From NCBI GenBank assembly GCA_017499595.2, contig CM039005.1, positions 1,364,001-1,428,000 on the forward strand: 64,000 nt of DNA. The letters run 5' to 3'. Under the pieces are notes generated by a model. The model had not been told where the DNA came from, did no database searches, and worked only from the letters and a program-made list of their open reading frames with translations. Position numbers and translations under genes: made by a program. The DNA comes from Psilocybe cubensis (lineage: Eukaryota). Positions 6,022 through 34,325 of this stretch are shown here, in pieces; within the stretch, counting starts at the first letter, position 1, and every line of letters begins with the position of its first letter.

Positions 6022-8280
6022 TTGAATGACTGTACTTACTGGGTGAATGGCCATTTGGCTGGTGTATAAATTCAGAATATAATGAAAATTATTAAAACCT
6101 TACCTGATACCTCTGATTGTGCACTAATCAAGAGAACTACTTCAATTTACTCTCTTTTCCATACAGTTTAGGAGAATGAGGTAGACAAAAGTGGGTAAAC
6201 TACTCCCACATAGCAACTTTCCGGTTCGGCTCCCCGATGTCAGAAATTCTACACATCACTTGTTCAAACCGCATTCTGCCAGGCTTGCCAGGCTCTTTAT
6301 CCGAGTCGATGTGCAGGATAAGGATTGTGTGTCATTGCGGTGTAAAAATTGAACACCGGGTATGCTACGGAGGAGCATGAGACTAGGATGTATGTGACTC
6401 CGACAAGAATAACTTGGGGAGATCAAAAGGATGCCAATGAACCGGCGCGGTTGCTCATTGACATGGGAAGGCCTCCTAATGTAATTGCCTGTTTTGGTCA
6501 ATTATAATGACGTCACTGATTAAGCAGACTCACGTGTGTTAATTTTGTCGGTTTCTGTGATGCCAGCAACTCAACATCGAGTCGATTTTTCCCGGGCATT
6601 CAGGCCGACCCATAGGTCCACCGAAGTCGTCTACAGCACCTAATCATGGAGAACAGCATTGATCCCGGGATTCACTGTCTTTTTATATCTAGATTGCCTC
6701 CTTGTCGAGATAAGGCACTGCTTTCATGTGTCAACTGACATATCCAAACGCCTAATCCATGAGATCGGCTGCTCCGAGCTCGAAGTACACTGTGCTTTCC
6801 CAAGAGATCGTCCCATTACACAGATCTGCCAGGTTACTGGTCTCGTCTTCCAAACTTCAGACTTACTCTGAACGCCCACTGTATCCCTACTCTCTTCAGC
6901 CTGGCAAACATGTCTGGACCTAAGCTCCCTTGGGCTCCCTTGGGCTTGCTTAGCGGTATTCTACTTGACCGCTTAACAATACTATGCATCTTCTTGATGT
7001 TAATGCTGCTGGTTACACAATTGTGTTTTTATATAATTCGGTTTGCACAACATTTTAATGCTTCAATTTCAAGCACCGATTATGTTCCATTTCCAGTTTG
7101 ACAAACCCAATCCACCAACTTGCCGCATCCACAAGCGTCAGAAAAAGAAATCGACAAAAAAAAATCAAACGTTCCAAGCGCCACCTCATATCAAAAGATA
7201 ACAACTCATCCAAAGTTTATCAAAGTATCTTTTTGATTTTTCCTGCTCGTAAAGTGAGCGGCCGTCGGTACGCATCTAGAGGCAAAATAGTACCTCGCTT
7301 TAGAGGGAAAAGGATGGGCATTTGCGGTACTGGCGGGAAAGCATTAGGTTTGCTTTTTGCATCTCTCTTTTAGACGTTGAATAAGAACTCAATCGAATGG
7401 TTTAGTTATCCGGGACGCAAGGATAATCAAAAGGTCATCAAAACAATCGACACTGGAAATCTATGCGAGTGCACCTAGGTTGGAGATCATAGTCGAATCA
7501 AAATTGTCTAAACCATGCCTCGAAAGATCGTCCATCTCCCGCGATTTACTTTCTATGTTAACCTTAAAACCAAGCGGATTTTTCTCCGACTGTGTCGACT
7601 GCCACTCAGATGGCTGGATTAATAAGCTTAGGGACTTGTTGTCGCCCGTTATTGTCTATCCTGTTCTTCAAACTACGCATAATTCTCCCCTAATCTCTTC
7701 TGATCCATCTGGATCTGCGCCTTTTTCCCCACCAAAGACTCAGCATGTGGTGCGTAAATGACCCCCCAATTCTTGATCTCGCTAACCACCGTATCGTAGG
7801 CCATGGACAAGTCAATCGACCTGTTATCTGCTTCAATGAAGGAATTCAAACTTCGAGAAGCAGCGCAGAGTCAACTTGTTAATTCTACAGCATCAGTCCC
7901 GCAAACTTCATTAACGGGACAGCAACAAGCACCCACAAACCCGTCGCCTACTGTACAAATACCGGTACATTCCTCAGAGAATCAACCTTTGCTTCCAAAT
8001 CCTACTGCGCTCGTAGGCTCTCCAGAAGAGCAAGTAACATCGAAACAACGAGTACCCCGCTTGCTGACCAACGCCAAAGCATCTTTTTCACGGCTCCAAC
8101 GTCCACCACAAGTCGCGAAAAGGACAAAACCAAAACAATCGTCCGCGGAGTCTGTAGACTCGGTAACGGAGCAATTTGCCTTGCTCGTGACTCCGTCCTC
8201 TTCAGAGAGTTCATCTTGCAAGAAGCCCTCGTTGAAGCAGATGAAAATATGGAATCAGCAAGCGGCTGTCAAGCAAGCTC

Positions 8281-8557
8281 TGTTAGGAATCGACTTAAGT
8301 CAAGAGAGAAGAATGCCCAAAGACCAAGTTGATATCGAAGCTGGGGTCTGACTACTGACCCCAGGACCCTATATATACATGGAGACCGGAGTAACTACTT
8401 CCCGGACCAGAGTACTCGACATATGACAACTATCAATAGATGAAACAGGAGAACGATAGACGTGGGACCGAACACAAAGATAGAACAAGGCATGACAGCG
8501 TGGGACCGTAACAGATAACGATAACGGATAGGGGTGGCACCAATACGTACCCTGACA
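8281..8557 (-). repeat. 3' LTR (277 bp)
   Basis: Reads TGTTAGGAATC...GTACCCTGACA on the plus strand; identical by eye to 9587-9863; abuts the PPT. Confidence 0.95.
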
Positions 8558-8570
8558 TCACCTCCCCTCT
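8558..8570 (-). promoter_or_regulatory. Polypurine tract (plus-strand priming site)
   Basis: Minus-strand AGAGGGGAGGTGA lies immediately 5' of the 3' LTR. Confidence 0.85.
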
Positions 8571-8598
8571 AAAGGTCGGTGTCCCAACGACCTGGTCT

Positions 8599-9495
8599 TC
8601 ACCGTGGACGGTTTGCACCAAAGACATGAGGCGGTCCACCGCCACAACGCGCGGTCTGAATTCCCTCCCTAGGCTGAACAGGCCCGGGGCGAGAGTAACC
8701 GTCAGAGTGTTGCTGCGGAGCCCTGAGAGCGTCCACCTCCATAGGCGAACCAGGGGCGAGCGACGAGGATGGGCTGGAGCGAGTGTCGACAGCCGTAGGA
8801 GTGGGCAAATGCGGAGAAGCCGTCCCGGAACGGGATGTCCGCGTAGTTGGGGTAGAGCTCAAGGTTGGAGTAGGAGAAGGAAGTTCAACGACGAGGGTAG
8901 GGGGGGCGGCAGTGGGCGCAGGAGGCTGTTTAGGCTTCTTGGACCTAGGGTTGCGGATGCGACGACGGGCAATCCGCTTGCCGATAGCAGAAAGAGCATC
9001 ACCAACTTCACGAGCGGTGCCCCTGATAGTGACGGCACGCAAACCGGAGGTGACGACGGGGGAGACCGAGATCTTTGCGTGCAAGATGTCGTGGATTTGG
9101 CGTAAGCCAGTTCCCGCGCGCCCTATGACGTGGCCAGCCTGTTCGTCCGCAATAGACAGGGTAGCGACGATCTTCTCGAGGGCGGCTTTGGTAGTAGTAG
9201 AGCGGATGGATTGGGAGTGCGGGGGCCCTGTAGTAGGGGTAGAGGTAGGTGCAGCCGGGCGTTCCTTCCTAGAGGTGCGTCGAGCGCGAGGTGCGCGAGC
9301 AGAGGGAGTGGGAGCGGCAGGCGGTTTGGGTAGGGAGGCTGTGAGGCGTTCAAGTTTAGACTCGATGGCAGACAGTCGGTCATCAACCTTTTTATCGGCG
9401 TCAAACCGGACTTGCTGCGCCCTAAAGAGGAGGGCGAAACGGTCCTCGAGGGACATCGTCATGAACCCATCGTAAGGCGAAGGAGGGTCGGCCAT
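8599..9495 (-). CDS. 298-aa intronless element protein: N-terminal coiled-coil-like helix, KH domain, basic and P/T/S-rich tail with PMEVD motif
   Basis: KH signature IVATLSIADEQAGHVIGRAGTGLRQIHDILHAKISVS...RAVTIRGTAREVGDALSAI, including the GxxG loop, at about 8980-9174. The ORF fills nearly the whole internal region. Confidence 0.85.
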   Translation of the reverse strand: MADPPSPYDGFMTMSLEDRFALLFRAQQVRFDADKKVDDRLSAIESKLERLTASLPKPPAAPTPSARAPRARRTSRKERPAAPTSTPTTGPPHSQSIRSTTTKAALEKIVATLSIADEQAGHVIGRAGTGLRQIHDILHAKISVSPVVTSGLRAVTIRGTAREVGDALSAIGKRIARRRIRNPRSKKPKQPPAPTAAPPTLVVELPSPTPTLSSTPTTRTSRSGTASPHLPTPTAVDTRSSPSSSLAPGSPMEVDALRAPQQHSDGYSRPGPVQPREGIQTARCGGGPPHVFGANRPR

Positions 9496-9573
9496 AGAGT
9501 ATAGTAGGTGGGGGCAAGGTAGAGTGGAGTAGACGAGCGCTGCACTGGATAGAGTACCAGGGCAACGTTGGGT

Positions 9574-9584
9574 AGCTTCGATAT
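9574..9584 (-). promoter_or_regulatory. Primer-binding site, self-priming type
   Basis: Minus-strand ATATCGAAGCT lies 2 nt inside the 5' LTR. It is the exact complement of AGCTTCGATAT in the LTR (9638-9648) and does not start with TGG as a tRNA PBS would. Confidence 0.8.
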
Positions 9585-9586
9585 GC

Positions 9587-9863
9587 TGTTAGGAATCGAC
9601 TTAAGTCAAGAGAGAAGAATGCCCAAAGACCAAGTTGATATCGAAGCTGGGGTCTGACTACTGACCCCAGGACCCTATATATACATGGAGACCGGAGTAA
9701 CTACTTCCCGGACCAGAGTACTCGACATATGACAACTATCAATAGATGAAACAGGAGAACGATAGACGTGGGACCGAACACAAAGATAGAACAAGGCATG
9801 ACAGCGTGGGACCGTAACAGATAACGATAACGGATAGGGGTGGCACCAATACGTACCCTGACA
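9587..9863 (-). repeat. 5' LTR (277 bp) with TATA box at 9676-9683
   Basis: Direct repeat of 8281-8557; TATATATA lies 27 nt upstream of the 11-mer complementary to the PBS. Confidence 0.95.
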
Positions 9864-12800
9864 AGCTCGGGGTGAAAAGAAGGTTAAACGCACACGTGGT
9901 AATCCCTATGAAAGACCGTCTAAGGGCAGTGGGCAGTACCAGACCAAACCCACGCAGGACATTGATCATCAGGAGTTAGAGGATAACCCTGATGATATCG
10001 TCAAATTTTTGGAAGCCCTTCAGGTGGGCCTCCCCTCCAACGCCGCTCAGGTCAACACTTTGGTAGGGAGCTCCCAGATCTATTCCACGATAGCAGAATC
10101 TCGGAGCCTCGATGATACCACCCCCGCAAGTGAAGACCACAATACCTTGTCCGCAGATGGCCAGAAGGGGTGTGATACCCTCATAGAACGACTTCCAGGC
10201 AGTAGCACAACATCGGCAAACTCAGACGGTCAAACAGTTAACGCCTTGCGAAAAGGTAAACAGGTCAATCGCACCCCAATAACAAAACTTGCGGTAAATG
10301 TTATATAACCCCTCTTTGCGAAAATAATCTGATCACCAATTCTTGGATCTAGGATTCACAGCCGCTTACTGGGTTGGCCGATGAAAGCGTATGTCATTTC
10401 ATTTGGATGCTCATGTCTTCAAACCTAACCCTTGTTGTCTTTCTGCAGCACTTCTTGGCGTTTGAACCCATTGATATTTTGGGTGATGTATCAACTGAAC
10501 TAGTTTGGGAGCCTGTTAACGTAAGTTCTTTGCGTTATTTCGTTGACTCCAATACTAAATCAAATATCACAAAAGGACGATGAGCAACCGCTGAACAGCT
10601 ACAAGGGAATCATAACTCTGGTGATTTTGTAACGTTTCTGCTCTGAATAGGCCTATATTGACTACAATACCTTCAGGAGCAACCACCTCAACAAGATCAG
10701 GAGCTAGTGGACGTTGGTACCAAAATACTCAAGGCTACCTACAGGCAAATTCCAGAACATGTCGTAGAGGTTTATGCCTTCAGATATTATCACTGCCTTA
10801 TTATTTTTATATCAATTACTGACAATTATCATTGATTTTAGGCACTTGCTGAGGACACAGGAAGACAGATGGCGGCAATCTGGGACATGGAGATTGGCAA
10901 GAATTCAACCATTGACGAATTGGAGTCTATCGTACAGACTCTATTAGCGAACGTCATTCGCGATTCGGGCATGTACCTCATTGGAGAAATTGCTCAGTGG
11001 GAACCAACCAATCCGAAGGAAGCCCTGCCAGTACCGACGACGACTGGATCATTGGATACGCCGGACATGGAAATTGATGTGAGGCCATTTAGTTTCTACT
11101 TATCATTTATTCATTATCTCATTTCAATCACTCTTGGTAGGATGATGATATTCTAGTTAGATATGCCCAGGTAAGACCTAAACACTTTAGCTCATGTATC
11201 TGCCAATGCAAGCAGCTTTGTTGCCAGGAGCAAGAAATTAGAGATCGTCATCTCGTTTCAAGCTTCCAGGAGGTAAAATGAATCTAGCAGTATTAAAAAT
11301 CATCGAGACTAATGTAGTTAATGCATAGGAACAACAGGAGCCAGAGCAAATCGAGCTCAATTGGGTACATATTGACCTGTTTAATTTACTTTATATCGAA
11401 ACTGATAGCTAACAATATCTTCTACACAGATTCAAGAACAGGAACGGCAACTCGAAGAGGGATGCATCTACACAACTAACCTCGTTGTCGATATCCTCAA
11501 TGCTGCCGCTTCTGGAGAGCTACCAGGAATAGTCGTCCAGGTCTGTAAACCTTTTGCTTTTTGAATCATTACTCAATATCTAAAATGGCATATTTTTTTA
11601 CTCGTGCAATAGGAAGAGATCTCACAGGCCCAACAATTTGTGGACTCGGCGACAGCCTTTATCCACCACACTGTCACCACGAACCAAGGGACGGTCGTTG
11701 AAGCCGTGGGCACGGTGCGCAAATACTTGGTTAATAAACTGCAATCAGCTAGTTTGCGCATTGAAGTCTCTTTGGCAATGGAAGAGCAGCTTCCCAGTGC
11801 TCCTATGGTCTCTCATCCGGCATATGAGCTCCATTATCAGGTATGTGTATTTTCCTAGACCCCTTCAATGATCCATTTATTCTGATTTCCTTCACTACTT
11901 TAGGACCCTTTGTTGGACAGCAACATGGACGAGGTATCAGCATCGGCAACGCCAACTTCAACACTGCCACCTAGATTGATCAAACCCCCTTCAGCATCTG
12001 CAGTAGAAGAGCCATCAAAGACACTACCACTGCCCGAGGAAGTTGACAATAGCTTCCACAAGGCACACCAAAATGCTGGCCACGACCAGAATGAGGTCGT
12101 TCGATCCGACGGAAATGTGGAAAAGGAGGAAGAGACACGCATTGGAGAGGACGCTCTCCTTTGCTTGGTTCATCCTACCCTTTCCAATGACGTCGAGACC
12201 TCCGCCGGCGTGGACCATGGAGAGGGCCAATCTGGCCTGGGCCATGGTGTGTCGGCGGAGGATCCGCCTTTGGAATTCGTCAATACTCAGCCGCTTGGTC
12301 ATGGATGCCTAAAAGCCAGTACGACGCAAGCGACAGCCTGCCCATCGTCTGAGCCGCAGGGTATTGATGAACACTAGGTGATGCCCGAATCAGTGCCCAA
12401 AGTGGCCGTTGGAGAGAGTACTCCGAACGGCGGGCTCGATGACTCGGAAGAAAAATCAGTAAAGGCCGAAATTGATGGTGTAAGTGTTCTATCTCAAGAT
12501 ATGCCATTGCATTGTTAACCTCCTTTTTATCTGTAACAGACTGCTACTCAAAATTCTGAAGATAGTGCTGGTCATCAAGCACTCGAAGATCAAGGCGTCG
12601 AAGTACTAGAGGAAATTGGTGCCGTGCCGGTAATATACCTTCTATCCTACTCTATCTCTCACATTAACTTCATTTTTTTTACTAGGTTTTGGATGCTGAA
12701 GTCGATCTGGGAAGGCTTGACGACAGAGCTAGTCATACGGAAAGGACCTCCAAAAAGCGCTGAGCGGAGGAGACAGGTAAATCCTATGTCGAGATAGAGG

Positions 12801-15616: not shown

Positions 15617-16988
15617 TCAGACAGAATTTGGCGATCTTTTTTGAAAGAGCCTTATTAACCGGATCCACCATTCAATAAATCCTATAATCTGTCTGGTAGT
15701 TCTGCTTTGGGGTGGTGGACTTTTCCTCCTGCGTTCTTCTGCCGTGGTCCTCCTTAGCCAAATTTCTCCTGACAGACAGGGTTGATCAAGCGATGTAACA
15801 ATTTGTCGAAGAATGCTAAGTGACTCCGTAGCTGTAGGCCTCAATGCAGGGTCGGTATATCTCATAGAATCGGCCAAAGGTGACAAAAAATCTAAGCCTT
15901 CGTATTCCTGGAGAGTGATATTTGAGCAAGTACTTAAATTGATGCGGGAGGCACTTACTTCAACAAATCTGTCGACAAGGTCTCCTAATTGAAAGACATC
16001 TAGCTTGAATGGATTATATGGAATAGTTCCCGACATCTCAGGGACATATTTGACTTGACCATAGTATCCAACACAGCTAGAGCCAGGAGTAAAAAATTCA
16101 GCTGTCTCGAAATCAATCAGATAGTATTTAACAGGTGCCACGGAGCAGCGATCCTTGTGGACTATATGTATTCTCCCGTCAGGCTGCCAGTAGTTAGCCA
16201 CATGGTGAAAACCACTCGGGATAACATTTGTGGGATCCATCATGAAATTACGGCGACATGCATCCCTAATAAGACATTAGCATCGGCATTTTCAAACTTA
16301 AGGTCAATGCTCGGTTTCTACCTATGCGCTATATTGTGCTCATGCAGGAATTGAATGCCCTAATAGAGAAAGTCGCAGGTTTTACTCGCAGCTTGATTGA
16401 CAGATAGTCTATATAAACATACCTGGATTAGTTGTTCAACCACCTCCAAAACCTCTCGAACATGCCGATATGGAAGAGTCACCGACATAAGTGGGAAAAG
16501 CATAGGCATCACAATAAGTGCAGAAGGCGAAGAAGTTTCGACGCCACTATCGTTTGGAAGCGGTAAAACCTCTAAGAGGGGGACGACATTATTCCTGCTG
16601 TCTTCACGCATCTTTGAAGTATTCAGGTATTGCAAAATTTCAACATTGTCTTCTGCAAGGACCACTCGCTTGATTACCACCCTGGTGCCGTCGCGGATAC
16701 GGACTGCGTCTATTAGTTTGGGTTCCTGTACAACGAGTCGGTCACGTAATATATTTGACATATTGGATTGAGGTTGCGTACACTTGTCCAAAGCCAGTCA
16801 GAGCAAGTTGTCATATCTTTATTGAGATTCCAAAATCTCGTCCATGAAGGTTTTCAATTTGGATGGTAACGAGGTCGTAATTTGTAGCCCATTCGCTTTA
16901 GAAATGGCTGGAGCTTGACCCATTCTACTTCCCAGGGTAGCAACAGGCCATCATCTTCCTCCGTATCCTGGCTTATCTGGAGAGTCAT
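15617..16988 (-). pseudogene. AgaK1-like kinase, copy 3, probable pseudogene (Trp to stop in exon 1)
   Basis: Same exon layout and motifs (HRDACRRNFMMD, VKYYLIDFETA). YHPN-TGA-KPSW at 16854-16856 has TGG in the other three copies. Confidence 0.75.
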
Positions 16989-17580
16989 TGATGGTGCTGC
17001 TTCTGGTTTCAAGGTACAAGCCTGAGGCAGAAACCAGAGGATAGCGGAGGTGAGTGTCTTCTACAACAGTGTTCTCAGTAAGTTGACAGGTCCTGACTAA
17101 TACCGAATGCCAGCAAATTAACTCCGACTCAAATTTTCATGCCAATCCGCCAATCCAATGTTCATGAACTCAAACCAAATTTTGAAACTAAGAATCCAGT
17201 CACCTGACATGTCGAAGTCGAAGTCGCGTAGCGTTTAACCCGTTTGCCTCAGGTTCTCCAATCTAATATTGGTCGACTGAAGAGGCCCCAGCAACTTGAA
17301 TACCCCATAGCTCAACTGTGACGATAAAGTATGACTGTCCAGACCGTTCCCACCAATCCAGTCCTCGGGAACCCCAGGTTTATCCAAACAATTCGCCTCT
17401 TTTAACTAAGATCTTCAGATACATCTGAAGCCATTGGAGAAATTACAAATTGAGAGGACACTGATAACGATTATATGTATGTTTTCATGAGTATACGAGT
17501 AGTAGAAAAGTGATATAAATATGACATATGAATTACTAGAGTAAGATAGCGCAAAACTTGTGAGTCGGCCCTCTTGTTTT

Positions 17581-18946
17581 TCAGACAGGGTTTGACGTTC
17601 TTTTTTGGAATAACATTATCAGCCTGATCCACCATTCAATAAATGATATAAGGCGTCTGGTAGCTCTACTTTGGGGCGGTGGACTTTTCCTCCCGCGTTC
17701 TTCGGCCGTTGTCTTTCTTAACCAGATATCCCCTGATAGACAAGCATAATCAAGTGATGCAATAATCTGTCGAAGAATGGAAAGTGATTCCGTAGCTGTA
17801 GGCCTCAACTCGGGATCAAAATATCTCATGGATTCCGCCAAAGGAGAGAGAAAATCTAAGCCTTCGTACTCCTGGAGGACAATATTTGAGCAAATACTTA
17901 ACCTGATTTGGGAGGCGCTTACTTGAACGAATCTGTCGACAACGTCACCTAATTGAAAGACGTCTAGCTTGAATGGATCATATGGAATAGTTCCCGACAT
18001 CTCTGGAACGTATTTGACTTGACCGTAATATCCAACACAGCCAGTACCTGGAGCAAAAAAGCGGGCCGTTTCGAAATCAATCAAATAGTATTTAACAGGT
18101 GCCACGGCACAGCGATCTCGGTAGATGATCCGCGTTTTCCCGTCAGGCTGGCAGTAGTTCGCGGCATGATGAAAGCTGCTTGGGATAACGTTCGTTGGAT
18201 CCATCAAGAAATTACCACAGCACGCATCTCTGACATAATTTTAAGATATTAGCTCTTCAAAGATTCGAGATCAAGAGCACTATACCTATGCGCAATATGA
18301 TGTTCATGGAGGAATTGAATTCCCTGGCGAGAAAATGAAACGCTCAACTTTCAAATTGATTGAGATCATGTTTAAATTTACCTGGATTAGTTGTTCGAGT
18401 AGCTCAAGAACCTCTTTAACATGTCGATATGGAAGACTATCCGACATAAGTGGAAATAACATAGGCATCACAAGAAGTGCGGAAGGCGAGGAGGTTTCAA
18501 GACCACTGTCATTTGGCAGCAATAAGACATCCAGGAGTGGGACGGTGTTATTTCTGCTGTCTTCGCGCATTTTTGGAGTATTCAGGAATTGCAAGATTTC
18601 AACATTGTCTTCTGCAAGAACCACTCGTTTGAGCACCACCTTGGCACCGTCACGGACGCGGACTGCATCTATCAACTTGGGCACCTGCCGACCAAGTCAA
18701 TTATTTTATTAGTATCGAAAGATGCATATTTCGTACGCTTGTCCAAAGCCAATCAGAGTAGTCTGACATATCTTTATTGAGATTCCAAAACCTTGTCCAA
18801 GGAGGTTTCCAATTTGGATGATACCGAGGTCGCAATTTATAGCCGTTCTTCTTCAGAAAAGGCTGTAGTTTGACCCAATCAACTTCCCAGGGTAACAAAA
18901 TACTGTCGTCCTCATCCGTATCCTGGCTTATAGGCTGGGGAGGCAT
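17581..18946 (-). CDS. AgaK1-like fungal protein kinase, copy 4
   Basis: MPPQPISQDTDEDD..., YKLRPRYHPNWKPPW, IAHR|DACCGNFLMD, VKYYLIDFETARFF, PYDPFKLDVFQLG; close paralogue of copy 3. Confidence 0.85.
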
Positions 18947-19930: not shown

Positions 19931-20791
19931 TTAGTCGATGAGGTACTTTCGCTTGAAATAAGAGCGGAGGTGGAAGATTTGCCATGCGCCGAGGCCGGCC
20001 AGAGAGATGATTGAAAACCAGGCAAAGTTTTGTACGCGTTTATTGGTTGAAACTGGAAGGAGAGTAAGCACCCAGGGTAAGATAGGAGAACATTGTAACC
20101 ATAAAAAACTCACAATTCGTCTTGGTAAACCGCTCTTCACGCTTCTTCAAATAGTTCATCTCGTCTACAACCTCCTTAACGAGTCCTTCCAGCTTACGCA
20201 TTTCGGTTTCGAGACCAGAAAGTGATTCCTGGTTAGCAATAGCGCTGTTCGCACGTTTTACAATAAGATACCGGTTCATACATCGGCTTTTGCAATGAGA
20301 CACTCACTTGTAGTCGACGGCGTCAGCGCCTATATCAATGTCTAGGTCGATGACGCGACTCAATTTCCCCTGTTCGTCTTGCGAGAGCTTAGCATCTATA
20401 GCGATGTTTAGTAAACGCAGCTTCAGATTAATGATACAAGAGCAGACAGACCTGTATCGATGTAGTTTCTCAGACACACCCCCACTTCACCCTCAGAATG
20501 CGTGGTGATTGCCAGCCTCGACTCCGCTTTGATCCCCCTTTTGCTCAAGTAGATATTCCTCTTCGGACTTGAGTCTACAATCTCGATGTCTACGCGTTGG
20601 TGCAAACCAGGCCCAACGTTGGCTGTGACAATGACGAGAGCGTTAGGATGAGCTGGGTTCCATATGCATTTTTGTGGAGGATAGCGGAATGCTGGCAGGT
20701 TGAACTTGATGGCCGAGACGGTGTGGCAAAACGACAGGAAAAGAACGACAAGAGGAAGAATCAGCGATAATGGCCGCGATGACGAAGCCAT
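19931..20791 (-). CDS. ERV25: p24/emp24/gp25L family cargo receptor (Erv25/TMED10-like)
   Basis: Signal peptide, GOLD domain, IDIGADAVDY..AIANQESLSGLETEMRKLE, TNKRVQNFAWFS transmembrane segment and YFKRKYLID dilysine-type tail. Confidence 0.93.
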
Positions 20792-21059
20792 GCTGGAGTG
20801 GATGAGAGGTGTTGTCGTGGTCGTCGTGAAAGCGGGTCGTGAGTCTGCCAACCGTGATTGGCTCGGCAATAGTGGGACTCACATGCTACGTGGGACTCTT
20901 CGGACACGCAACACTACCCAGCGGCCGGCTTTTCACCTCGTACTCCTCCACCAATCTATCCTCTTTTCTGGCAACTCACTCCAACCTCCAGTATTGCCTC
21001 GTTTTGGTCTACGATATTTGATGGTTCTAGCAAAGAACTATCAGGTCACTTTTTCAAAA

Positions 21060-27855: not shown

Positions 27856-30800
27856 CTACCGGATGTCTGTGTCCAAAGGCACCCTGCACAATGGGCAGGT
27901 TTTACTCCTCCTCAACCACCGAGATAGACAGCTTTCATGGAACGAATGCTGGCACAACGACGTCAACGCGCCCATTTCGCCATCCTTGAACTGAAACAAG
28001 CAAATGCCACATTTATTCACCGCAACGTCCAAGAGCGACAACTTAAGCTTCACGACGCCCTTGTCGGTAACGCGCCGCCTCTTCACTTCAATACGCGCGA
28101 TGAGCGAGATATTGTCGCTGGGGTGCCGGGGGGTGCAGATCGGAGTGGACGAAGTCGCGTTGTTGCTGGATGTGATCGTAGGTGTTGTACGGTTGTCGGT
28201 TGCACCGCTGTGGTTCGGGCTCGAATTCGGGTTCAATGACAGGTTCGAGTTCGGGTTCGAGGTCGTCGTCGAGGTCAAATCTGTACTGGCTGGCCCAATT
28301 ATCTCGGAAAGCAGGAGAAGCGTCTGGGGGCTGTTTGAGGCGCGTACCGTTCCACCCGTGGTGACCAGAACTCACATCATAATCAGTACCGTTTGGATCT
28401 GCATCTGCCAGTCTGGAAACCAACAAATCCAAATCTGTCAGGTCTGAAAGTACATTATTCGGGGCGCTGCTGTTCTGCTGAATAGCAGCGCCAGGGGAAT
28501 GACGCGATCCTGACAAGGGGCTTCTTGAGGAGCTGATGTTCAGCATCCTTGGATCCCTCATAAGATTAACTGAGGATGAGGAAGCCTGAGCCTGTACTTG
28601 AGCCAATGGGAGGTGCGGCTGGGATGTATACCTCTCAGACGATAAAGGCGTCGAAGAACGGCTCGCTGGAATGGTGTCTAACGTCGTATCCTCCAAGTCA
28701 ATCAAAAGACCCTCCGGACAGGTGCTAAGCGGGTTATTTCTAAGCGTCAAAGTCGGGTCCGAGGACGCGTATACCGAATCGACAACATGAACACGGTTCG
28801 TGTTAGTAGGAACAGACGCACTCGGCGGCGGGCGCGGAAGTGGTCGGCCAGCGTAGTGGTGCCGTGATGGAGTGATAGGTTCCTCCAACGAGTTCGACTT
28901 TACCACTTCTGTAGTAACTGACATCGTAGAAGGTCCAGAAGGAGGCGGTGGTGTAGCCATCCTTGACGTCGTAGTTGCAGGTGCAGCGGTGAGTGCGGGT
29001 GCAATGCGATGATGGTCTTCGGAGATCGGGTTTGTCAGCAATCTTGGCGAGGTGCCGGCCGAGAGCACAGGCAGGTCTGACAAGATGTCTTCGTCGTTGA
29101 ATGCAGCGACAGAGCCGTCAAGATCAAACTGATGGTAGAGAGTGGGAGTCATTGGAAGTGGTGTGTCTAAAGCCTTCTGGTACATAGCTGCTTCGGCAGC
29201 TGACTGATCCCCCACGAGGCTATGAGTAGTGTTTGTACCCAATCGTAGAGGAGAAGGATGCGCAACCTGTGCGACGTGCTTCAACACCGTGAGTGAAGGC
29301 GCAGGAGATGGAGACACGGCGCGGACGCGTACAGACACCAATGGCGGGCCCGAGTTCAGGGAAGTTGTGGATTCAGAGGCCAGGAATGTAGGGCTCCTGT
29401 GCGTAGATTCGGAAGCACCAGGTGTCGGGGATCGGTTTCGATGTACAGAACGATCAAGGAAAAGTTGAGATGACCCTTTCCAATCTCTCAGGAATGTTTC
29501 CTGGGAAGCCTGTGGCGATGGTATTCTCAGCGTACGCCGTTCTTCCTCTGAGGACTCTGGTACCATTAGCGATCTCTTTGCCCTAGAGGCATCAGACATG
29601 TATGGTGTCCCTAATGAAAAGCTCACGCTCTTCGTTGGAGAAGTATCGCCATTGCCATTGGAATGTTGTTGGATTGACTCAATCGCTGACAACAAGCTGC
29701 GAGGATGAATAACAGTTTCATTCCCCAATTCATCGACTCCAGCATATGTTTCTTCCTCGACAACTTCCCAAGTTTCAATTGGTTCCGCATTCTGGTGTAG
29801 ACCATCTGAGTTCTGCTTGCTGCGATCTCTTCTGAAAATTCTTCGCGATAAAGGTTCTCTTTTTCCGGTGTGCGGCGGCGGCGGTGATAGAAGTGGCAAC
29901 CGAAGGAAAGATGCGGTCGCCAACGATGATGAGCTTCGGAAGAAAATGGAGCGGGAAGTATGGTATGGTGATGTTGGCGAAGGGTGCGCAGACAAAGTTG
30001 CGCGATCTTCGTGAACCGGCGAACGTGGAGGAAATATCGTCTTTAATGGGGAGAGCGACAAAAAACGTCGCTTAGGACTGACGGGAATCGGCCCAAAGTC
30101 ATCATTCTTTGGGTCTGGGTCGATAAGCAAAGGCGTCAAAAGCTTTTTAGCAGATCGTCCCCGTGTGAGGGCATTAATCCCATCACTTAGAGGTTTACTC
30201 GCAGAGGAATGGTTCATCAAGGCCGATGATTTATTTGGAAACTCCGTTCCTCGGCGCTTGAGCCAGTCGCTCTTTACTCGTTCCTCCAATGCAGCACCAC
30301 TCGGGAGGTCGGTAGAACAGACAGGAACCGAATTTCGATCGATAATAAACATCTCGCCTTCAAAATCCACGTCGTTATCGGCACCCTGTGGGTCAGTCGT
30401 GACCACTTGCGCTACGGGTTGATCAATCGATTCTCGCGGTTCCTCAACGGGCTGGACAATCGATACTTGTGGTTCTTCTGGTATGTTAGCGGGAATAATC
30501 AACGGCAGTGTGGGCGCCAGTGGCAGCGACGTCGTACTAGAGCATACAGAAACTGGGGGCGTAGTCATTGCCTCCTGAAACGAAGGCGGAGGGTAATCAG
30601 GTATTCCTACAAGAAAAAAACGCATATAGTAAGCATACATGTCCGTCAAACGATAAAAAGCATACCATTCTGATCTTCAGGGTACGTCCTTCCTGGTATA
30701 CGAAACCCTCTGCGGACCCCTCTACTTGCCGGCGGAGGGCGCAAACTTCTAGGCCCAGTATTGAATCTCATTTCTTCTTCCTGCCTAGGAGGTCTCTCCG

Positions 30801-31471: not shown

Positions 31472-34325
<2,854 letters not shown>

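Follow-up and report, generated by a model that had tools for sequence, protein, structure and literature searches.

A non-autonomous LTR retroelement of Psilocybe cubensis that encodes a predicted KH protein carries covarying sequences expected of self-primed reverse transcription

How does an LTR element prime reverse transcription when no tRNA-type start stands beside its 5' LTR, and which enzymes does it use if it encodes none of its own? These questions are raised by an element of 1583 bp located on the minus strand at 8281-9863 of the 64-kb stretch of Psilocybe cubensis DNA analysed here, referred to as the window. Direct-repeat search and self-BLAST delimit two 277-nt LTRs (9863-9587 and 8557-8281) that are 100% identical and both read TGTCAG...CTAACA, with TG..CA ends. 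The TSD GAGCT directly adjoins the outer end of the 5' LTR (9864-9868) and recurs on the 3' side (8276-8280), where it is seen in the sequence and in the empty-site contigs described below. Going inward from the 5' LTR on the same strand, a 2-nt spacer GC (9585-9586) separates the terminal CA of the LTR from the putative PBS ATATCGAAGCT (9574-9584), a single ORF of 298 aa occupies 8599-9495, and a polypurine tract (PPT), AGAGGGGAGGTGA (8558-8570), abuts the 3' LTR. The PPT/LTR junction, of the type GGTGA followed by TGTCAGGG, is also found in four relatives (L004, L010, L001 and L006). With two LTRs, a TSD, a PBS and a PPT and without RT or integrase, the element is a non-autonomous LTR retrotransposon; it is non-autonomous because gag, protease, RT and integrase are all missing. 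No second copy of the element was found in the window by self-BLAST. Additionally, none of the 39 further open frames scanned in the window, comprising 6 of the 10 that reach 250 aa and 33 of the 69 that reach 140 aa (the remainder being mostly overlapping or shorter), contains an RT, RNase H, integrase or Gag domain.

The element has moved recently. Two DNA runs with the same organism label, X1 and X2, each contain one contig that joins position 8273 to 9862, and these empty-site contigs skip 1588 nt, corresponding to the 1583 nt of the element plus the 5-nt TSD. The X1 contig is 7430 nt long and extends through both flanks. The insertion is absent from the isolates of X1 and X2, and the presence of an empty site in two DNA runs, together with the identity of the two LTRs, indicates recent transposition. 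The summed contig depth is far higher for the LTR than for the flanks (in X1, for example, 2379 versus 71), which, contig depth being not itself a copy number, suggests that many LTR copies exist. In the empty allele, an open frame of 306 codons starting from the ATG at 7803 (plus strand) crosses the insertion point; in the window, its two halves lie at 7800-8273 and 9862-10308 on the plus strand, and neither half has a Pfam family. Because this frame spans the empty site, the element interrupts a possible host gene in the present isolate. Taken together, the locus is best explained as a non-autonomous LTR retroelement that inserted recently in the genome of an Agaricomycete.

Fragments of host genes for p24/GOLD (20423-20878), RING finger (27856-28371), Sec23/Sec24 (32254-34286) and DASH Dam1 (43799-44368) proteins confirm the fungal chromosomal context of the window. 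Three regions of tandem direct repeats are also present, at 1-2686 (1.9-kb units, 75-79% alike), 15617-18931 (units of approximately 1.96 kb, 80-82% alike) and 45386-49707 (2.98-kb units, 85-95% alike). The first two regions have a 73-nt piece in common, and the ORFs tested in all three yielded no Pfam family.

The first-pass annotation of this locus had claimed that a TATA box, a 27-nt gap and an 11-mer are followed, 2 nt inside the LTR and at the position of a PBS, by the complement of that 11-mer, and every one of these features is present. Specifically, the U3 TATA box TATATATA (9683-9676, minus strand) is followed after a gap of 27 nt by AGCTTCGATAT (9648-9638), which begins 35 nt after the TATA box start, and ATATCGAAGCT (9584-9574) is the exact reverse complement of AGCTTCGATAT over 11/11 nt. 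Since this complement begins 2 nt past the end of the 5' LTR, it sits where a PBS belongs. Self-BLAST of the 64 kb places the 11-mer and its complement in the LTRs and at the PBS, and nowhere else. When the LTR was shuffled 20,000 times with dinucleotides preserved, and the stretch starting 0-5 nt beyond the LTR served as the target, a complement of at least 11 nt arose in 2 shuffles and one of at least 10 nt in 16. The 11-nt complementarity in the window element is thus confirmed as real rather than a product of chance.

These shuffles bear on a first alternative, in which the site is an ordinary PBS for a tRNA or a tRNA fragment and its complementarity to the LTR is coincidental, a match for which they give a chance of about 1e-4. 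As the first-pass annotation had also stated, no tRNA-type TGG start stands directly past the 5' LTR; the nearest TGG lies 27 nt downstream and is not conserved in relatives. A search of 8100-10000 against Rfam returned no match at E ≤ 1 and nothing tRNA-like, and a tRNA gene search of the 64-kb window found none. The relatives of the element, described below, weigh further against this alternative.

The family set consists of 13 elements, namely the window element and twelve others (L001-L012) from a metagenome contig scan with protein alignment, and the relatives with a readable structure share the layout of LTR, KH ORF, PPT and LTR within 1.25-1.7 kb. Pairing between primer and PBS could be assessed in 10 of the 13. 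L006 was left out as a contig without the primer part of either LTR, L012 because its LTR runs into an unrelated flank and hence has no PBS, and L009 because it has no recognisable LTR of the KH element family. The open frame of L009 (L009:627-1496, in a 3.2-kb contig) belongs to the KH family, has no upstream ATG and is surrounded by AT-rich sequence and other repeats; it may be a decayed or captured copy.

A perfect primer/PBS pair of 10-13 nt is found at the homologous two places in all ten assessable elements, and the PBS-side strand starts 0-2 nt past the terminal CA of the LTR in each of them, the spacer in the relatives being 0-2 nt long. These pairs comprise nine different sequences: besides AGCTTCGATAT with ATATCGAAGCT in the window element, the primer and PBS are AGCTTTGATAT and ATATCAAAGCT in L008, AGCTTTGAAAT and ATTTCAAAGCT in both L010 and L011, ACCTTGATAT and ATATCAAGGT in L001, ACCTTTGAATTT and AAATTCAAAGGT in L002, ACCTTAGAATTA and TAATTCTAAGGT in L005, CACCTTTGAATTA and TAATTCAAAGGTG in L007, ATCTTTGCAATA and TATTGCAAAGAT in L003, and TAGACTTGATAT and ATATCAAGTCTA in L004. 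The PBS sequence thus differs between members, and it never begins with TGG. The first-pass annotation had proposed that compensatory changes between the 11-mer and the PBS be sought across relatives, and the outcome is positive. In a nine-row MAFFT alignment (A2; L011, whose two parts lie at opposite contig ends, was omitted), 6 of the 11 primer:PBS pairs have changed on both sides, and 93.6% of the primer:PBS cells are paired versus 79.5% in shuffles. The observed covariation values were reached by 0 of 500 shuffles on any of five measures, in a shuffle control that ignores the kinship of the rows. Sliding the partner by 1-3 columns leaves only 22-48% of the cells paired. Because a gap at column 248 in four rows shifts 2-3 true pairs out of register, these counts are conservative.

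In line with a pairing that is specific to each element, the primer side matches its own PBS over 10-13 nt and the PBS of other elements over at most 8 nt, except among close kin (L010/L011, L002/L007 and L008/L010). L010, whose LTRs are 90% alike, has one mismatch in the primer copy of its 5' LTR, whereas the copy in its 3' LTR still matches the PBS, a pattern that fits what decay after insertion would produce in an old copy. As the PBS varies in step with the element's own LTR, a conserved tRNA template cannot explain the site. The ten compensated pairs support the claim that the partner of the site at the PBS position is the element's own LTR and not a tRNA, and we consider the tRNA alternative very improbable.

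The pairing is also recovered at the level of RNA folding. RNAalifold independently predicts the primer:PBS duplex, and when the primer-to-PBS segment is folded, this duplex closes the minimum-energy structure in 9/9 elements (z -2.4 to -5.1). Such folds, like the covariation, demonstrate base pairing and not priming, and this leaves room for a second alternative, in which the conserved duplex closes the 5' leader as a structural stem, acting in packaging, dimerisation, translation control or RNA stability, while another primer is used. A further point in its favour comes from the Tf1 pretzel, in which the primer:PBS duplex is described as flanked by two duplexes, both formed by LTR sequences with sequences next to the PBS (PMC10085805). 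The flanking duplexes that Tf1 needs are not detectable here: when the U5-end and post-PBS stretches were scored against the LTR by duplex energies, neither arm did better than shuffles in any of the 9 elements; even in the best case, a fraction of 0.07 of the shuffles equalled or exceeded it. Of the three-duplex pretzel, the family shows the central primer:PBS duplex and, on the U5 side, a 2-bp contact in which the GG of a conserved AACTTGG motif, located directly 3' of the primer stretch in the family alignment (9630-9636; GG at 9631-9630), pairs with the CC (9593-9592) that precedes TAACA at the LTR end. This contact covaries over its 2 bp, being GC in most rows and AU (GA:TC) in L010, L002 and L005; at that column pair it is intact throughout the alignment and in RNAalifold.

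Three observations speak against the duplex being only a structural stem. Its 3' strand starts 0-2 nt past the LTR terminal CA in all ten elements, which is the position set by the start of the minus strand; there is no alternative PBS candidate, given that a TGG start is lacking and the sole nearby TGG is unconserved; and pairing that is perfect in ten of ten elements is more in keeping with a site copied from a primer than with a stem under selection. We therefore regard a purely structural role as unlikely, and favour a duplex from which minus-strand synthesis would be primed.

If the duplex primes, the transcript would be expected to start close to the primer stretch. Nine family LTRs have a recognisable TATA box, and in these its first base precedes the primer stretch by 33-38 nt. 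At Pol II promoters outside budding yeast, such spacing would allow transcription to begin with the paired stretch or a few nucleotides ahead of it. From this conserved TATA spacing, which is the evidence bearing on the start site, we predict that the RNA begins at or near 9648, so that AGCTTCGATAT (9638-9648) would be transcript nucleotides 1-11 and the start of R.

Between the TATA box and the 11-mer, the GGGGTC (9668-9663)/GACCCC (9654-9649) hairpin noted by the first-pass annotation is present and extends to a stem of 8 bp, CTGGGGTC/GACCCCAG, formed by 9670-9663 with 9654-9647 (hairpin 9647-9670, minus strand). It folds at -15.4 kcal/mol, a value reached by 6 of 500 shuffles, and its 3' arm reaches 2 nt into the primer stretch. 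Hairpins of differing sequence occupy the same place, at the predicted U3/R border, in 9 of the 10 family LTRs (window, L001, L002, L003, L005, L007, L008, L010 and L011; L004 has none), with energies of -7.7 to -15.9 kcal/mol and z of -1.2 to -4.9, and the 3' arm covers the first 2-3 nt of the primer. The stems of L010 and L011 differ by a G-to-A change with a C-to-T change to match. An RNA that begins with the primer stretch would contain the hairpin only in its 3' U3. The U5 palindrome GACTTAAGTC, another feature of that annotation, is likewise found (9607-9598), and L001, L002 and L007 fold with U5 stem-loops in a similar position. Short palindromes can also be seen by eye right after the PBS, namely CAACGTTG in the window element (9564-9573, minus strand), AACTAGTT in L001, CAATTG in L003 and GTCGAC in L008; they recall the dimerisation sites of retroviruses, but this reading was dropped, as they are absent or different in L002, L004, L005, L007 and L010.

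Taken together, these sequence comparisons make it probable that the 5' end of the element's RNA serves as the primer for minus-strand cDNA, in the manner of Tf1. The RNA of Tf1 anneals to the PBS through nucleotides 1-11 and is cleaved by RNase H between nucleotides 11 and 12 (PMC7175516, PMC10085805). By the proposed mechanism, RNA polymerase II would start approximately 30-35 nt past the TATA box, at or within a few nucleotides of 9648; nucleotides 1-11 of the RNA would loop back across R-U5 to anneal to the 11 nt located 2 nt past U5; the RNase H of a helper would cleave the RNA behind the paired stretch; and from the 3' OH so released, the helper RT would synthesise DNA across the GC spacer and U5. 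The primer would later be copied into the plus strand, and, being copied in each round of transposition, it would cause the PBS to be rewritten as its exact complement. That the pairing is perfect rather than merely good fits a PBS recopied from the primer at every transposition, as this analogy with Tf1 would predict.

The covariation and folding data fit priming in cis and in trans alike, and a third alternative is that the same complementary stretch primes in trans, from the RNA of a family member or of the helper, or else from the R copy at the 3' end, without the transcript's own 5' end folding back. An identical stretch is indeed present in the 3' LTR, at 8342-8332. A donor acting in trans would have to be a near-identical copy, because each PBS is matched by the LTR of the same element but by no LTR of a diverged relative, and the use of the 3' copy, an internal stretch, would require two cuts or an end. 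We judge priming by either route improbable, and retain fold-back of the transcript's own 5' end as the preferred mechanism.

For this mechanism, RT, RNase H and integrase would be supplied in trans by an autonomous element able to perform the cleavage. A Tf1/sushi-group chromovirus is the most plausible helper, as a source of an RNase H that cuts an RNA duplex, although the case for it is not compelling. Self-priming is also predicted for the TAR lineage of plant Ty1/copia elements in the account of PMC6317226, so that self-priming alone is no proof of a Tf1/sushi helper. One X1 contig has a loose end at window position 8560, where the start of a family LTR is joined to a different internal sequence ending purine-rich; this contig may represent another element type that shares the LTR, and perhaps the helper.

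What, then, does the element encode? KH_1 (PF00013) is the only Pfam domain above cut-off in the 298-aa ORF (E 9.2e-8; 32.2 bits versus 21.5). The ORF consists of a long N-terminal helix, a basic linker, a KH domain at approximately 109-176 and a disordered Pro-rich tail. An AlphaFold2 model built with 24 family sequences shows a long helix at 16-53, a KH fold at 109-176 and disorder elsewhere, with a mean pLDDT of 60.6 and values of 73-88 per ten-residue block across the helix and KH parts. The secondary structure of the KH part in this model is E109-116, H117-124, H126-138, E141-145, E152-159 and H161-176, and G125, G128 and G130 are invariant in the family. The ORF product belongs to KH_1, as its score exceeds the gathering cut-off and it has the GxxG loop and the beta-alpha-alpha-beta-beta-alpha fold, and it is predicted to be a coiled-coil plus KH RNA-binding protein.

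The nearest proteins are several paralogues from Psilocybe cubensis, at 97% and 90% identity, and the next relatives come from Agrocybe pediades, Psilocybe cf. subviscida, Dendrothele and Sphaerobolus, plus short contigs. A profile search of 1.84 billion representatives gave 1008 matches at E ≤ 1e-3, 49 of them at E ≤ 1e-30. The full-length matches are approximately 250-440 aa long, and no Gag-Pol-sized protein is among them; fused or longer KH forms were found neither among the longer proteins, which is weak evidence, nor in viral contigs. In all 23 pairwise comparisons for which dS is defined, the KH ORF has a dN/dS of 0.2-0.43 (L005/L007: 0.41 at a dS of 0.36), which indicates that the ORF is under purifying selection. 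The literature found on the KH domain with LTR retrotransposons, on basidiomycete self-priming and on Psilocybe cubensis retrotransposons describes no KH-encoding LTR element, and a family of pol-less, KH-only elements appears to be undescribed in the literature searched.

Self-priming as a mechanism is already known; what is new is its carrier, a pol-less, KH-only and recently active family of mushroom elements. To our knowledge, self-priming of reverse transcription has been demonstrated experimentally only for Tf1 and is elsewhere predicted from single sequences. The present family amounts to a natural mutational series, with nine different perfect primer/PBS pairs, and this is about as strong as comparative evidence can be. 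If a pol-less parasite can depend on self-priming, a requirement is set on the RNase H of its helper. Because the element is young, with identical LTRs, an empty site elsewhere and a location inside a 306-codon frame, it is a candidate for an active and tractable retroelement in a cultivable mushroom. KH-only coding additionally raises the question of what a non-autonomous LTR element gains from an RNA-binding protein of its own, which is unaddressed in the literature found on KH domains and LTR retrotransposons. We tentatively suggest, as a picture that is possible rather than probable, that the family is a widespread and old Agaricomycete lineage in which gag-pol has been replaced by a coiled-coil plus KH protein acting as an RNA-coating or packaging adaptor, that it lives as a self-priming hyperparasite of Tf1/sushi-type chromoviruses, and that the U3/R hairpin is an extra cis signal for self-priming or strand transfer beyond the Tf1 model.

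Several known systems resemble the element in part. Self-priming has been proposed for Tf2 and Tj1 (PMC4600332), for Tosmo and Tcry elements (PMC10085805) and for Tcn1 of the basidiomycete Cryptococcus (PMC7175516), and is predicted for the plant Tcn1 and TAR clades by a search that required complementarity over 10 bp or more, with its start 0-5 bp past the 5' LTR (PMC6317226). By the same measure, the window element pairs over 11/11 nt and all ten assessable members over 10-13 nt. Like the Tf1/sushi-group chromoviruses Tf1 and Tf2 of Schizosaccharomyces pombe and Tj1, Tosmo and Tcry1 of further fission yeasts, as these are described in PMC7175516, PMC10085805 and PMC4600332, the element appears to have no tRNA-type PBS, has TG..CA LTRs and has a PPT, a likeness judged from published descriptions. 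Unlike the Tf1 group, it has no gag, protease, RT, RNase H, integrase or chromodomain and carries a single KH ORF; its host is a basidiomycete mushroom, the flanking pretzel duplexes are undetectable, and a U3/R-border hairpin overlapping the primer start is present here as an extra feature and absent from the published Tf1 model. As it has no pol, the element falls outside the Tf1/sushi chromoviruses when these are defined by the grouping of their RT, RNase H and integrase, the last with a chromodomain at its C-terminus.

With Tcn1 of Cryptococcus neoformans, whose clade occurs in fungi and non-seed plants, it shares being a basidiomycete LTR element with proposed self-priming, according to the accounts cited (PMC7175516, PMC6317226). 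Unlike the element, Tcn1 is autonomous and encodes gag-pol with a chromodomain, a comparison made by description only. The layout of the KH protein recalls that of another protein. LINE-1 ORF1p has a long N-terminal helix followed by a single-stranded-RNA-binding domain (RRM); the resemblance is an analogy in layout and not homology, since the folds are RRM versus KH and LINE-1 belongs to another element class, and RNA binding by the KH protein is a prediction. Non-autonomous LTR retrotransposons also include gag-only elements such as BARE-2. With TRIM and LARD elements, the present element shares the general plan of a short, LTR-bounded unit with PBS, PPT and TSD, without RT or integrase and mobilised in trans (TRIM as defined in PMC6934838). 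Unlike TRIM and LARD elements, which are non-coding, the family keeps an intact ORF under purifying selection, and this ORF encodes neither Gag nor a Pfam retroelement domain but a KH protein, in an element that putatively primes its own reverse transcription.
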